From: PVC group bacterium
Lineage (GTDB): Bacteria; Omnitrophota; Gorgyraeia; B26-G9
Direction of reading: 5' to 3'
DNA: 64,000 nt
Assembly (NCBI GenBank): GCA_024231215.1
Contig: JAAEQR010000195.1
Span: forward strand, 433,349-497,348
Positions 51,520-63,723 of the stretch are shown here, in pieces. Under the pieces are notes generated by a model. The model was not told the origin of the DNA. It was given only the letters and a program-made list of their open reading frames with translations, and searched no databases. Each line of letters starts with the position of its first letter. Position 1 is the first letter of the stretch. The position numbers were made by a program, and so were the translations under genes.

Positions 51520-53598
51520 ATGAGCCTTAATTTGCATATGAAAAAACATATAACTCTCTTCATGCTTCTAGCCCTAATTTTTACCGGATGTGTAATCTAT
51601 GCCGGGGCAATAAATGGTCAATTTATCTGGGATGATCATTTATTGATCAAGGATAATGTTTATATTAAAAGCTGGAATCATTTGCAGGAGATTTTTACGC
51701 AGGATTACGGGGCTGGGGTGGGACGGGAATATCATTTGTATCGGCCGCTTCAGATATTAAGTTATGTGGTAGAACATTCTCTTTGGAAACTTGATGTCCG
51801 AGGCTATCACATTGTTAATATTGGATTACATATACTAAACAGCTTGTTTGTTTTCTTTTTATGTATGCTTTTATTCAAAGATAGAACGCTGGCTTTTATA
51901 ACTGCGCTTTTATTCCTAAGCCATCCGGTGCATACGGAGACAGTTATTTATTTATCGAATCGGGGCGATCTTCTCGCTACCTTTTTTATCTTGCTATGTT
52001 GTATTTTATATATGGGATTTCATGAACGAAAGAGTGTTGTTTTATATATTTTTATTCCCATAAGTTGTCTTGCGGCAGTATTTTCTAAGGAGCAGGGGCT
52101 GATTTTGCCATTTTTGCTTTTGATATATCATTATGCATTTGGTATTAAAATAAAAAAAGGACGATTTGTTTCAATATCTGTTTTGTTGTTTGTCTATGTT
52201 ATTTTAAGGATAACTCTTTTAAAATCATTTCTACCCGGAGCCTCGGCGGCAATAGGGATGCCTCAGCGGATACCGGGATTTTTTGCCGCAATCACAAATT
52301 ATCTAAGGCTTTTGATCTTACCGGTTGGTTTGCATATGGATTATGGTAATAATATGTATGCGGTATTTCACCCGTTGGTATTAATCGGTATAGGGATAAC
52401 CGGATTGGCGATAAAAGCAGCTGTAACTTTCAGAAAACAAAATCCGCTTTTTACTTTTTCTATACTGTGGTTTTTTGCAGCATTATTACCGTTTTCAAAT
52501 ATCTATCCGCTACCGTTTTATATGTCAGAACACTATGTTTATATCCCTTCTATTGGTTTTTTGCTTATTGTTGCTTATGGGGTTCGACGTTTTTTAAAAA
52601 CCCCGGGGATGCTTTGTCGCATAACAATTTTAGGATTAGGTATCGTGGTTGGAATATTTGGGATATTGACTATAAGGCAAGCTGCTTATTGGAAAGACCC
52701 GATTAGTTTTTATGAACGCACACTACAGTATGCTCCGGATAGTGCGCGGATTAATCACAATCTTGGTGATATATATAACATAAAAGAGGAGTTTGATTTA
52801 TCAATAGGGTATTATGAAAAAGCAATAAAGCTTGATCCCAATCAGCCGGATACATATAACAGTTTAGGAGTTGTTTATCAGAAACAGGTGAAGTTGCAAG
52901 AAGCAGAAGCTTTATTTAGGCAAGCTTTAAAAATTAATCCTAAATTTATTGATGCTCGTAATAATCTAGGCGTAATATATCATAAACAAGGGGAGTTGGA
53001 TAAAGCACTTAGGGAATTCAAACATGCTTTAGCGATTAATCCTAATTACACAAAAGCTTATCTTAATTCCGCTAGAATTTATTATGCGTTAGGACAAAAA
53101 GAAAAGGCAGTAGATTGCTATAAAAAAGCATTAGAAACTGATCCGTCTGATAGTGGAATATACTATACGCTTGGAATTTTGTATCATGAGATGGGACAGG
53201 CAGATGAAGCGATCGGGATGTTTAAAAATTCCTTGAGAGGCAATACTCAGAATGTAGATGCATATTATAATCTTGGGGTTGTTTATGCGAAACAGGAGCA
53301 ATTTCAAGAGGCCATAGCGATGCTTAAGAAGGCAAAGTCTATGGATGAATCAGCGGCGGATATATGCTATGCATTAGGTTCGGCGTACTCCAAGATGGAA
53401 GAAATTGCTCAGGCTATTGCTGAATATGAAAAAGCATTGAAAATTAATCCAAATTATGCTCAGGCACATAATAATATTGCCTTGTTGTATTTTCATAATC
53501 AGGAGTATACTCGTGCTTTAGAACATTGTGAAAAAGCTTTATCTTTAGGAGGTATTGTGAATCTAGAGCTATTGGAAGCTTTAGAGCCGTATCGTTAG
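51520..53598 (+). CDS. polytopic membrane protein with C-terminal TPR array (TMTC/PMT-like GT-C + TPR architecture)
   Basis: About 10 TM helices in the N-terminal ~400 aa (…WDDHLLIKDN… loop near TM1). About 9 TPR repeats in the C-terminal half (…AYYNLGVVYAKQ…, …AHNNIALLYF…). Confidence 0.65.
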   Translation: MSLNLHMKKHITLFMLLALIFTGCVIYAGAINGQFIWDDHLLIKDNVYIKSWNHLQEIFTQDYGAGVGREYHLYRPLQILSYVVEHSLWKLDVRGYHIVNIGLHILNSLFVFFLCMLLFKDRTLAFITALLFLSHPVHTETVIYLSNRGDLLATFFILLCCILYMGFHERKSVVLYIFIPISCLAAVFSKEQGLILPFLLLIYHYAFGIKIKKGRFVSISVLLFVYVILRITLLKSFLPGASAAIGMPQRIPGFFAAITNYLRLLILPVGLHMDYGNNMYAVFHPLVLIGIGITGLAIKAAVTFRKQNPLFTFSILWFFAALLPFSNIYPLPFYMSEHYVYIPSIGFLLIVAYGVRRFLKTPGMLCRITILGLGIVVGIFGILTIRQAAYWKDPISFYERTLQYAPDSARINHNLGDIYNIKEEFDLSIGYYEKAIKLDPNQPDTYNSLGVVYQKQVKLQEAEALFRQALKINPKFIDARNNLGVIYHKQGELDKALREFKHALAINPNYTKAYLNSARIYYALGQKEKAVDCYKKALETDPSDSGIYYTLGILYHEMGQADEAIGMFKNSLRGNTQNVDAYYNLGVVYAKQEQFQEAIAMLKKAKSMDESAADICYALGSAYSKMEEIAQAIAEYEKALKINPNYAQAHNNIALLYFHNQEYTRALEHCEKALSLGGIVNLELLEALEPYR

Positions 53599-54281
53599 CG
53601 GATATGAAAGAGGCTTTTGATTATTAACCAGGTTAATTTGAACAGACTTTTCCAGGCTACCATTTTAGAAGCTCCTGCTTTTCTCGCAGCATAAGGTATT
53701 GCTATCTCCATTATTTTCATTTTATTCCGCTTAGCTTGTACTAAAAGCTCAAAATCAGGCCAACTGTCCTCTTGTAACTTATCAATAAGCTGGGGAATGC
53801 GAAAAGCTTTCATGCCGCAGAGAGTATCGGTTAGAGGTTGTTTAAGGGCCAGGGAGAATATGCGGGCAGTAAGTTTGTTTCCTAATATTTTGGGAACAGA
53901 AAAAGCTCCTTTTTCAAAGGGGTATATAAAACGGCTGCCATTTACAAAATCAGCTTTTTTATTGATTATAGGAGCAATGAATTTAGGGATTTCCAGTGGT
54001 GGAGAAGTGTAGTCTGCATCTAGTATAATGCCAATATCTCCGGTAGCATGTTGTAATCCGGTGCGAATTGCAAATCCTTTGCCACGGTTTTTTTTGTATT
54101 CAATAACATTAATTTCGGATGGAGTTATTGTTTTAGCTACTTGAGCTGTCTTATCGGATGATCCATCATCAATGACAATTATTTCTGTTTCATGGTTCAG
54201 AGGCGGAATTTTTTGAATACAATTTATTATATTTTCAGCTTCATTATAGCAGGGGATAAGGATTGATATTTTTTCGGTCAT
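53595..54281 (-). CDS. GT2 glycosyltransferase, polyprenyl-phosphate sugar synthase-like (DPM1/ArnC-like)
   Basis: ISILIPCYNEAENI…VIDDGSSDKT and DADYTSPP (DxD) motifs. At 228 aa it is a short soluble GT-A. Confidence 0.75.
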   Translation of the reverse strand: MTEKISILIPCYNEAENIINCIQKIPPLNHETEIIVIDDGSSDKTAQVAKTITPSEINVIEYKKNRGKGFAIRTGLQHATGDIGIILDADYTSPPLEIPKFIAPIINKKADFVNGSRFIYPFEKGAFSVPKILGNKLTARIFSLALKQPLTDTLCGMKAFRIPQLIDKLQEDSWPDFELLVQAKRNKMKIMEIAIPYAARKAGASKMVAWKSLFKLTWLIIKSLFHIR

Positions 54282-63022: not shown

Positions 63023-63723
63023 TTATTTCGGTGCATCAACCGCAGTATTTACCCTGGCTGGGATACTTTGACAAGATAGATAAAAGTGATTGCTTTGTTT
63101 TTCTGGATACGGTACAATATAAGATGAGGGAATTTCAAAACCGTAATAAAATCCGAACCAAGGACGGTTGGATATGGTTGACTGTCCCGGTAAAAACAAA
63201 GGGGCATTTTCACCAAGATATTAGCGCCGTCCTAATTGACGATGAGTCAGACTGGGCCGTTGAACACAAAAAGAGTTTAATGGCTTGGTATGGGAAGGCG
63301 CCTTTTTTTCGGCAATATTTTCCTTTTTTTGAGGATGTTTTTGCCAGGAGATGGGATCGTCTTGTTGATTTAAATATTTATATAATAAAATACTTACTGC
63401 AGGAATTGCAGATAGATACGCCTTTATATTTTGAATCTGAAGTAGGTACGACGCAAAAAAGTACTGCCCGGATAGTGGAAATTTGTCAAAAGCTTAAAGC
63501 AGATACCTATTTATCCGGTACTGGCGGGAAAGATTACATGGATGAAGGGTTGTTTGTGCAGACAGGGATTGGTTTGCAATATCAGCATTTTAATCACCCC
63601 TGTTACAACCAGCAGTTTATTTCTGCCCAACATCCATTTACTCCATATATGTCGGTTCTTGATTTATTGTTTAACGAAGGACCAAGAAGCATAGATATTA
63701 TAAAAGAAACTAATCACTTGTAA
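63019..63723 (+). CDS. WbqC-family protein
   Basis: N-terminus [34 protein letters not shown] matches the conserved start of WbqC-like proteins from LPS/O-antigen clusters. Confidence 0.7.
   Translation: [234 protein letters not shown]

Follow-up and report, generated by a model that had tools for sequence, protein, structure and literature searches.

In animals, cadherins are O-mannosylated by TMTC1-4 and IPT domains by a separate enzyme, TMEM260 (PMC10214176, PMC11292533). The published motif table of the TMTCs includes a strictly conserved DD in the first external loop (EL1, motif M1), and the human TMTCs all match the Pfam family DUF1736 below 1e-30 (PMC7801869). A family 2 glycosyltransferase (GT2) paired with a polytopic glycosyltransferase of the GT-C fold is the defining layout of three-component systems (PMC11127046). 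In Omnitrophota, giant open reading frames (ORFs) flanked by genes resembling those of type II secretion systems (T2SS) and type IV pili (T4P), together with SecA_DEAD domains, have already been described, and these reports make no mention of genes for GT-C proteins with tetratricopeptide repeats (TPRs) or for polyprenyl-phosphate sugars beside the giants (West-Roberts et al. 2023 preprint; Seymour et al. 2023). According to the published descriptions, the giants of this phylum usually carry SecA domains within the giant protein. Here we analyze a window of 64,000 nucleotides from a PVC group bacterium (contig JAAEQR010000195.1), and in particular a nine-gene island at positions 51520-63723 that encodes two GT-C proteins with C-terminal TPR arrays (ORF A and ORF B), a third GT-C protein of 531 aa (GT-C531) and a soluble GT2.

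We tentatively read this island as a composite locus for glycosylation in the periplasm or envelope of an Omnitrophota-type bacterium, built on a lipid-carrier pathway, with the TPR-bearing GT-C proteins likely acting on proteins. Gene content, folds, motifs, the conservation of one gene pair and the size of one family are the observations from which we start, and what we say of donor identity, topology and protein acceptors is derived from them. An ORF check of the window returned all nine genes at exactly the positions in the initial annotation, and their Pfam and NCBIfam domains agree with the kinds of genes it had named.

GT-C proteins with TPR arrays

The three GT-C proteins and the GT2 were delimited as follows, with the evidence for each in parentheses.

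51520-52698, plus strand: N-terminal GT-C domain of ORF A (aa 1-393) with 11 transmembrane (TM) helices, TMTC-like (AlphaFold2 model, Foldseek and motifs; no Pfam match)
52699-53598, plus strand: C-terminal TPR solenoid of ORF A (aa 394-692), about 8 repeats (TPR_1 9e-63, 7 stretches; AlphaFold2)
53595-54281, minus strand: soluble 228-aa GT2, candidate polyprenyl-phosphate-sugar synthase (Glycos_transf_2 5.5e-29; PDB matches)
54278-55873, minus strand: GT-C531, 531-aa polytopic GT-C protein, GT39/PMT_2-like (PMT_2 27.2 bits against a 26.1-bit cut-off)
57790-59154, plus strand: N-terminal GT-C domain of ORF B, PMT_2/ArnT-like (PMT_2 7e-9, 36.5 bits)
59155-60420, plus strand: C-terminal TPR array of ORF B, about 11 repeats in two blocks (TPR_1 5e-88, 11 stretches)

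ORF A encodes a protein of 692 aa in which Pfam recognized seven TPR_1 stretches. The N-terminal 427 aa had no Pfam match, and a PDB sequence search with the N-terminus returned nothing. With 45 homologues as input, AlphaFold2 gave confident models of the full-length protein (pLDDT 92.2, pTM 0.88) and of the N-terminal part (pLDDT 89.5, pTM 0.91), in which 11 long helices lead into a TPR superhelix. Foldseek run on the full-length model gave TPR proteins only, with OGT, SPY and consensus TPR superhelices as the best PDB matches, and the search was rerun with the N-terminal model. Ranks 1-36 against the PDB were then exclusively GT-C-fold proteins, namely Pmt4, STT3, ArnT, PglB, AglB, PimE, EmbA/B/C, DPY19 and AftD, as well as PIG-U, the GT-C-like subunit of the glycosylphosphatidylinositol transamidase (7wld_U, 7w72_U). 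Query TM-scores against these folds were 0.31-0.59, the best 17 lying at 0.50-0.59. Judged by its predicted structure, the membrane domain of ORF A is a GT-C domain.

The motifs of ORF A are FIWDD (aa 35-39), YHLYRPL (71-77), LLFLSHPVHTE (130-140), RGD (148-150), SKEQG (189-193), LHMDY (271-275) and SEHYVY (336-341). Across 45 family members, D38, D39, N46, P76, H97, H104, P136, E191, R250, H272, Y275, E337, H338 and Y341 are invariant, and Y74, R75 and the R148-x-D150 pair are nearly so; the Lys before E191, in the position of the TMTC motif M4 (KE(T/Q)xxT), is mostly Arg. Set against the TMTC motifs, the family keeps the YRP of M2 (SHKSYRP) with its His and Lys shifted or absent, replaces the DW of M5 by L-H-M-(D/E)-Y, and replaces the ERxxY of M7 by an invariant E337-H338-x-x-Y341. 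DUF1736 was absent from ORF A and from nine other N-terminal domains of the family, even at E<=10, and we therefore call ORF A TMTC-like rather than a demonstrated member of the TMTCs. The match to TMTCs proposed in the initial annotation thus holds for the 11-TM and TPR architecture and the DD motif, and fails for DUF1736, M5 and M7. As modeled, the architecture really is of the TMTC type, with 11 TM helices, a TPR array and DD, YRPL, HPxHTE, RxD and KE motifs, and ORF A probably works like a TMTC. In the topology we infer, its TPR array would be periplasmic, since 11 TM helices precede it and the motif-bearing loops all fall on the same side.

ORF B (876 aa) combines a PMT_2 match of 36-38 bits, above the 26.1-bit cut-off, with 11 TPR_1 stretches, so that both proteins proposed to join a GT-C domain to a TPR array were borne out, ORF A by AlphaFold2 and Foldseek and ORF B by its Pfam domains. 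Invariant residues of the B family are R32, P43, D51, G251, F254, K326 and E335. Of these, D51 belongs to loop 1, and GGxNFYIGNNP (aa 250-260) is part of a periplasmic loop that is both large and conserved. We retrieved 94 homologues from several phyla, nearly all with the combination of PMT_2 and TPRs, and the best of them lies in a housekeeping context. ORF B also passes the threshold of the PilW TPR model in NCBIfam, scoring 178 bits where 154 are required, which probably reflects generic TPR similarity. A hidden Markov model (HMM) built for its N-terminus contained TPR columns, and the matches from that homologue search were discarded. The same fate met the 100% hhalign score between A and B, which was driven by the TPRs; hhalign of the A family with GT-C531 reached only 20.8% probability.

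The A family is very large. A phmmer search of 1.84 billion representatives with the N-terminal domain of ORF A returned 78,873 clusters at E<=1e-3, of which 45,028 also passed E<=1e-10, and the best homologues, where named, are nearly all labeled Candidatus Omnitrophota or Omnitrophica. In CP070807.1, a complete Omnitrophota genome of 1.82 Mb, we found seven tandem A-like copies at one locus and two at another, a total of nine counted from the two loci examined, and eleven fetched loci held 2-4 A-like copies each. The three closest homologues of ORF A (47-48% identity) are surrounded by housekeeping genes, and the 10 kb around them contain neither a giant ORF nor a T2SS or GT2. Neighbor-joining of 104 A-like domains gave a star-like tree. 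The ORF A of the window is without a close orthologue there and does not cluster with the copies that accompany T2SS genes or giants.

The seven-gene array of CP070807.1 (L169, 3374-18104) consists of head-to-tail TMTC-like genes that each score 559-593 bits against the HMM of the A N-terminal domain, five of them with the strict FIWDD pattern. A Phosphodiest-family gene and CysN/CysD-like genes follow the array, and the same tail (TPR-GT-C, Phosphodiest, CysN and PAPS_reduct genes) stands behind GT-C531 in L003 and L004. The 527-aa ORF that precedes the seven-gene array is not a GT-C531 homologue.

The GT2 and GT-C531 module and its glycan-type neighbors

GT2 is free of hydrophobic segments in its translated ORF, overlaps the stop of GT-C531 by 4 bp and is the last gene of a minus-strand operon. 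Its top PDB relatives are all polyprenyl-phosphate glycosyltransferases: dolichyl-phosphate mannose (DPM) synthase of P. furiosus (5mlz, 2.8e-19, residues 3-215), ArnC (2e-17) and GtrB (1e-10). Its earlier description as a soluble, DPM1-like GT2 is upheld by these closest solved relatives. The best NCBIfam matches are AglJ, a dolichyl-P-hexose transferase and ArnC, all below their cut-offs. From its sequence, GT2 is a candidate polyprenyl-phosphate-sugar synthase of the DPM1/ArnC/GtrB class.

GT-C531 scores just over the PMT_2 cut-off, and the NCBI record that matches it with 100% identity bears the name 'glycosyltransferase family 39 protein'. We found no NCBIfam match, ArnT included, at E<=1e-3, and no match in a PDB sequence search with the GT-C531 profile. 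Loop 1 contains an HWDE motif (aa 33-37) in which D36 is invariant and E37 nearly invariant across the family. A strongly conserved, soluble C-terminal domain occupies aa 410-531 (HPYQNVYFN ... ELDYWGLSYRKALEYIL), with the family consensus HPxQNVYFN...ELDYWGLSYR and no Pfam or PDB sequence match. Among 8000 candidates scored, 1740 were homologues at E<=1e-5, the best-scoring being full-length with 37-47% identity, and the family occupies 474 loci in GTDB species representatives of many phyla. These include Omnitrophota, Planctomycetota, Bacteroidota (with the cultured Adhaeribacter), Acidobacteriota and Longilinea (Chloroflexi), as well as WWE3, Daviesbacteria and Peribacteria, which are labeled as members of the candidate phyla radiation (CPR). 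CPR bacteria and Chloroflexi are not known to have lipopolysaccharide (LPS). A family found in lineages taken as lacking LPS argues against a family-wide role of the ArnT type on lipid A, and, since it spans lineages taken as diderm and monoderm, the acceptor of GT-C531 is probably not LPS. Assignment to ArnT, which the initial annotation had named as an outcome that would overturn its proposal, was thus not what we found.

To count neighbors, 80 of the 474 loci were fetched. In 14 of the 80, no more than 500 bp separate GT-C531 from a GT2 homologue, which is on the same strand in 13 of these, and in 22 the distance is at most 2 kb; such proximity spans Omnitrophota, Planctomycetota, Bacteroidota, WWE3 and Aminicenantes. 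GT2 and GT-C531 therefore form a conserved module independent of the giants of Omnitrophota. No ORF in the fetched loci is longer than 2051 aa, a test of low power because a 10-kb flank would miss even the giant of our window; ORFs of at least 1500 aa occur in 3-4 of the 80. Conservation in relatives without giants, which the initial annotation had named among the outcomes that would refute it, was therefore seen for the GT2/GT-C531 module.

The other genes of the island, and the radical SAM gene just before it, are of glycan type or have been grouped with such genes.

50197-51354, plus strand: rSAM1, Radical SAM/SPASM enzyme (Radical_SAM 1.7e-18, SPASM 4.5e-12)
55884-56579, minus strand: CDP-alcohol phosphatidyltransferase-family membrane protein, 231 aa (CDP-OH_P_transf PF01066 3.7e-19)
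56503-57687, minus strand: rSAM2, Radical SAM/SPASM enzyme (Radical_SAM 6.7e-14, SPASM 2e-5)
60436-61599, plus strand: GT4 glycosyltransferase, cytoplasmic, nucleotide-sugar dependent (Glycos_transf_1 4e-41)
61574-63022, plus strand: membrane-anchored, PHP/CehA-like putative metallohydrolase, weak assignment (PHP 3.3e-4, below cut-off; TM-like segments)
63019-63723, plus strand: WbqC-family protein (PF08889 7e-78)

Together these genes form three tight units. The first, on the plus strand, runs from the T2SS genes through rSAM1 to A; the second, on the minus strand, comprises rSAM2, the CDP-alcohol transferase, GT-C531 and GT2, which overlap or are spaced by 4-10 bp; and the third, again on the plus strand, consists of B, GT4, the PHP-like gene and WbqC. 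A scan for promoters and terminators was not informative, since it found 42 promoter-like sites where 54 were expected. The true start of rSAM2, first gene of its operon, is probably the ATG at aa 37, and in L023 an rSAM2 orthologue (50% identity) lies directly upstream of the GT-C531 orthologue and overlaps it. rSAM1 lies behind the pseudopilin genes of the T2SS cluster and ahead of ORF A, and probably belongs with the glycan genes. The CDP-alcohol transferase is PgsA-like at 65 bits, below the 109-bit NCBIfam cut-off, and no homologue of it was found near GT-C531 in the 80 loci. The PHP gene is present as annotated and its assignment is weak; a CehA_McbA match likewise scored 36.7 bits against a cut-off of 80. 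The WbqC family occurs in O-antigen clusters.

In the Omnitrophota locus with the best partial synteny (L011), the GT-C531-GT2 pair lies right beside orthologues of WbqC (61%), GT4 (45%) and rSAM1 (65%), and a WecA-like Glycos_transf_4 protein, an EpsG-like polymerase, a PIG-L deacetylase and a methyltransferase are also encoded; this neighborhood is a Wzy-type polysaccharide cluster. By this likeness, the island of our window could be an ordinary glycan or glycolipid locus, where GT4, WbqC, the radical SAM enzymes and the CDP-alcohol transferase make a surface polysaccharide or lipid-linked glycan, GT2 and GT-C531, possibly with A and B, decorate it outside the cytoplasm as Gtr- and Arn-type systems do, and the TPRs serve as scaffolds like those of BcsC, PgaA and PelB. 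The DegT aminotransferase and ABC-2 exporter genes at the start of the window point in the same direction, as does the three-component layout of the GT2 and GT-C pair (PMC11127046). However, GT-C531 matches neither ArnT nor any other NCBIfam model and occurs in CPR- and Chloroflexi-labeled lineages (not known to have LPS), and the island encodes neither a flippase or Wzx/Wzy nor an initiating transferase. It is also hard to explain nine or more TPR-GT-C paralogues in one small genome by decoration of a polysaccharide alone, and the only characterized enzymes with the architecture of ORF A, the TMTCs, act on proteins (PMC7801869). We consider an ordinary glycan locus possible, though rather unlikely.

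The giant protein and the secretion genes

Two further features of the window bear on the choice of acceptor.

17430-37853, plus strand: giant secreted protein of 6807 aa, proposed acceptor (Pfam in pieces; composition)
39381-50118, both strands: T2SS-like cluster between the giant ORF and the island (Pfam; ORF translations)

After the genes at its start, the window also contains a two-component/sigma-54 regulator pair, followed in order by a SecA_DEAD fusion, the giant ORF, a PQQ-type propeller gene, the T2SS-like cluster, rSAM1 and the nine island genes. A possible cassette for peptide maturation lies at 3586-8798 (plus strand), where genes for a SurA-like chaperone, an S24-type peptidase and an NTP_transf_5 nucleotidyltransferase are followed by a 266-aa ORF and a radical SAM/SPASM gene. 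Counting those at 50197-51354 and 56503-57687, the window has three radical SAM/SPASM genes.

The giant ORF starts with a signal peptide (signal anchor) and is composed of 13.8% Thr, 9.3% Ser and 10.2% Asp, its combined Ser and Thr content being 23.2% against 10.9% in the other proteins of the window. Pfam scans in pieces of 520-600 aa found four TIG/IPT domains (PF01833, 2e-14) and three CARDB domains (1e-10) that pieces of 3200-3600 aa had missed. Golvesin_C and a C-terminal PQQ-like propeller are also present, and the N-terminal 480 aa gave a sub-threshold BclA_C-like match. The main repeat of about 250 aa, with about 15 copies between aa 1700 and 5500, belongs to no Pfam family. The description of this protein as Thr/Ser-rich with IPT repeats is therefore upheld, whereas its cadherin-like character could not be verified. 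Nor does it adjoin the island, as had been stated: the PQQ-propeller gene and the T2SS-like cluster (37975-51354, 13.7 kb) lie in between.

The SecA fusion is a separate gene (12355-17193, plus strand), and 237 bp separate its end from the giant ORF downstream. Its 1612-aa product has SecA_DEAD, SecA P-loop and preprotein-binding domains in the C-terminal half. No SecY or Asp-type protein was found among the window ORFs scanned, and the locus does not match the accessory Sec systems with which a parallel had been drawn. On its minus strand, the T2SS-like cluster encodes a secretin, a GspC/M-like protein, a PilM-PilN fusion and a ParA-like protein, and on its plus strand GspE, GspF and GspI/J/K-like pseudopilins. 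The PilM-PilN fusion (610 aa, GspL-like) and the adjoining ParA/MinD-type ATPase lie at 42242-44831 (minus strand). There is no obvious gene for a major pseudopilin (GspG) between gspF and the GspI/J/K-like genes, and the pseudopilins present are of the minor type (GspI/J/K-like), without Ser/Thr-rich tails.

A- or B-like genes were found near giant-like ORFs in about 3 of about 41 independent loci selected by A or B (L092/L103 and L171). L171 (5995-22031) encodes two A-like proteins, one B-like protein (41% identity to ORF B over 640 aa) and a 227-aa GT2, and this module lies 3 kb from an acidic ORF of at least 2329 aa with 20% Ser+Thr and a signal peptide. A transposase gene precedes the giant-like ORF, and upstream are four B12/radical-SAM genes and an LPG_synthase_TM gene. 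In L092, T4P genes and an F-type ATPase are accompanied by three A-like genes and by a Thr-rich ORF of at least 1611 aa in convergent orientation; its orthologue L103 has a Thr-rich ORF of at least 2442 aa. These Thr-rich ORFs (16368-21203 in L092 and 4767-12095 in L103, both minus strand) have 14-15% Thr and no Pfam match, share a C-terminal hydrophobic anchor and charged tail (LLFFVVWQTKLKEVGAPGTEEP...), and are both adjoined by a GGDEF response regulator and A-like genes. Homology of either ORF to the giant of the window was rejected by phmmer, and a blastp match is probably compositional. In L141, an A-like gene lies near a SecA-fusion gene.

As first proposed, the island would be a dedicated O-glycosylation system for the giant TIG/Ig-repeat protein, acting in the periplasm before T2SS-type export in parallel to O-mannosylation of cadherin and IPT domains; TMTCs had been credited with both kinds of domain, of which IPT is served by TMEM260 (PMC10214176, PMC11292533). 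The signal peptide, the Ser and Thr content and the four TIG domains of the giant would suit such a system, as would the place of ORF A as last gene after the T2SS pseudopilin genes and the neighborhoods of L171, L092/L103 and L141. A giant with a Sec signal peptide would also cross the periplasm, where GT-C active sites face, although this is plausibility and not evidence. Against dedication stand the housekeeping contexts of the nearest A homologues and the best B homologue, the spread of the GT2/GT-C531 module through other phyla, the 13.7 kb and full T2SS cluster between island and giant, and the unrelated giants of L092/L103. The co-occurrence that the initial annotation had suggested testing does recur, in a minority of loci, at a rate similar to the 3-4 of 80 GT-C531-selected loci with ORFs of at least 1500 aa and, by a rough estimate, not clearly above chance in giant-rich Omnitrophota genomes; with several giants and pilus or secretion clusters per small genome, an excess over chance is not demonstrable. 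Because the size and scattered distribution of the A and B families also argue against it, we regard a system dedicated to the giant as improbable.

About 4 of about 39 independent loci selected by A have T2SS or T4P genes in the neighborhood. In L138, three GspE genes, GspF and two small ORFs (109 and 112 aa, not scanned) are followed by an A-like gene and then PilMN...secretin genes, and in L168 two A-like genes diverge from a secretin/ExeA-like cluster. The association is stronger for GT-C531 in Omnitrophota-labeled loci, where GspE/F were found within 10 kb in 5 of 18. In L020, L026 and L046, GT-C531 lies inside T4P-type clusters directly after pilin-like ORFs, and L020 and L046 also encode another PMT_2-like GT-C as well as an A-like protein, whose gene in L046 stands just before PilM...secretin. 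Downstream of GspF, these clusters share a conserved ORF of about 500 aa between small ORFs and GT-C531 (L020 7261-9986, L046 8431-9930, L026 8416-9939); only for L020 was the pilin-like (N_methyl) nature of the small ORFs confirmed, and the 500-aa ORF had no Pfam match in the two loci scanned, L020 and L046. A precedent for a GT-C protein acting on a pilin is TfpW, which modifies P. aeruginosa group IV pilin (bioRxiv 10.1101/2020.04.19.049825). The cyanobacterial pilin glycosyltransferase Ogt was rejected as a GT-C precedent, being a cytoplasmic GT41 enzyme.

That the GT-C proteins serve the adjacent T2SS/T4P machine, by O-glycosylating pilins or pseudopilins or through TPRs that act as PilF/PilW/Tgl-like secretin-assembly factors, would fit these contexts, the position of ORF A behind GspE-GspF-GspI/J/K-rSAM1 on the same strand and the PilW score of ORF B, and is nonetheless very improbable in view of the few A-selected loci concerned, the minor pseudopilins of the window, the probably generic nature of the PilW match and a chance of adjacency that is not negligible where an Omnitrophota genome has several such clusters (rough estimate).

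Proposed pathway and comparison with known systems

For the composite envelope-glycosylation locus that we tentatively favor, we propose the following pathway. As its class suggests, the soluble GT2 would work on the cytoplasmic side of the membrane and transfer a monosaccharide from its nucleotide-sugar donor to polyprenyl phosphate, the lipid-linked sugar would be flipped across the membrane, and the three GT-C enzymes would use it in the periplasm, each with its catalytic Asp motif in the first periplasmic loop. GT-C531 would be the conserved partner of GT2, and A and B may be further consumers of its product, since a module of A, B and GT2 recurs in L171. By analogy with TMTCs and OGT, the periplasmic TPR solenoids of A and B most likely recruit and select the proteins that are to be O-glycosylated. 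GT4, WbqC, the PHP-like protein, the CDP-alcohol transferase and the two radical SAM enzymes probably build or modify the glycan or the lipid-linked sugar. We consider the giant protein a plausible, unproven and non-exclusive acceptor, alongside T2SS-routed, T4P and other exported proteins.

Several points weigh against this pathway. No acceptor was identified for the locus, and the sugar of GT2 cannot be named because all NCBIfam equivalogs scored below cut-off. No GtrA-type flippase was found among the nine island ORFs (small ORFs were not exhaustively searched), and literature searches found no characterized bacterial enzyme that combines GT-C and TPRs. TPR arrays are also found in polysaccharide-export proteins and are thus no proof of a protein acceptor. 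Finally, the three transcription units may be functionally independent neighbors, as only parts of the arrangement recur elsewhere.

A bolder version, which we hold to be unlikely, is that in Omnitrophota and related uncultured bacteria a greatly expanded TMTC-like family of periplasmic GT-C proteins with TPRs, fed by a DPM1-like polyprenyl-phosphate-sugar synthase, O-glycosylates folded beta-sandwich domains (TIG/Ig-like) of giant secreted adhesins together with T2SS/T4P components. Such a family would be the prokaryotic counterpart, possibly the evolutionary precursor, of the domain-specific O-mannosylation of animal cadherin and IPT domains, a step that we hold to be equally unlikely.

The kinds of genes in the island and the neighborhood of giant and T2SS genes are already known, the latter from published work. 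What may be new is a bacterial TMTC-like family with motif variants of its own and without the DUF1736 signature, its expansion in tandem arrays in Omnitrophota, and its recurrence, in a minority of loci, beside secretion or pilus clusters and giant-like ORFs. If the TPR-bearing GT-C proteins are protein O-glycosyltransferases, bacteria hold tens of thousands of uncharacterized relatives of the animal TMTCs, and domain-specific O-glycosylation of adhesion modules predates eukaryotes. Omnitrophota are thought to be ultra-small predators or symbionts, and glycosylated giant surface proteins or pili would then bear on their attachment to hosts. Even as an ordinary glycan locus, the island defines a conserved, multi-phylum module of a GT2 and a 531-aa GT-C protein, and the giant-gene neighborhood known from the literature can include GT-C and GT2 genes.

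Among known systems, the published giant loci of Omnitrophota resemble the window, where a T2SS/T4P-like system with more than 10 genes and a gene for a SecA_DEAD-domain protein flank the giant ORF; here, unlike there, the SecA-like domain lies in the separate 1612-aa ORF and the giant has an N-terminal signal anchor only. Unlike accessory Sec systems (SecA2/SecY2, Asp1-3, GtfA/B), the GT-C proteins would act after export and not before it. The likeness to TfpW, the pilin arabinosyltransferase of P. aeruginosa, is one of context: a GT-C gene in or beside pilin or T2SS-T4P clusters and, as we propose, a polyprenyl-phosphate-sugar donor. In contrast to TfpW and the pilin-linked O-oligosaccharyltransferases, the pilin-like genes of the window are minor pseudopilins and the association holds for a minority of the family only.

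With PMT/POMT enzymes (GT39), ORF B and, marginally, GT-C531 share a PMT_2 clan match that ORF A lacks, and Pmt4 of C. thermophilum is the best structural match of the ORF A membrane domain. Sequence identity is only about 12%, MIR and PMT (PF02366) domains are not matched by A, B or GT-C531, and A and B differ by bearing TPRs. The actinobacterial pair of Pmt and Ppm1 follows the same pathway logic, with a DPM1-like donor synthase and a periplasmic GT-C enzyme. The three-component systems (GtrA/B/C, ArnC/ArnT, CsbB/YfhO) share with the island a small polyprenyl-phosphate GT2 beside a polytopic GT-C, an arrangement that is conserved across phyla. The island GT2 differs from GtrB and ArnC in lacking C-terminal TM helices, no GtrA-like gene stands among the nine ORFs, and two additional GT-C proteins bear TPR arrays; GT-C531, unlike curated ArnT (GT83), has no model match and has a conserved C-terminal domain of its own.

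From TMTC1-4 (CAZy GT105), ORF A differs in being bacterial and periplasmic instead of residing in the endoplasmic reticulum, in a shorter EL4 loop, in the absence of DUF1736, in the M5 (H-M-(D/E)-Y) and M7 (E-H-x-x-Y) variants and the unconserved Lys of M4 in its family, and in the tandem, multi-copy arrays of A-family genes. Like them, it combines an N-terminal GT-C domain of 11 TM helices with a C-terminal TPR array that would face away from the cytoplasm. Compared with the printed TMTC sequences (PMC7801869), DD and YRPL stand in its first external loop (YHLYRPLQIL in ORF A, SHKSYRPLCVL in TMTC1), TM3 reads LLFLSHPVHTE where TMTC3 has LLFAVHPIHT, and ORF A also has an RxD motif and a KEQ in EL3.

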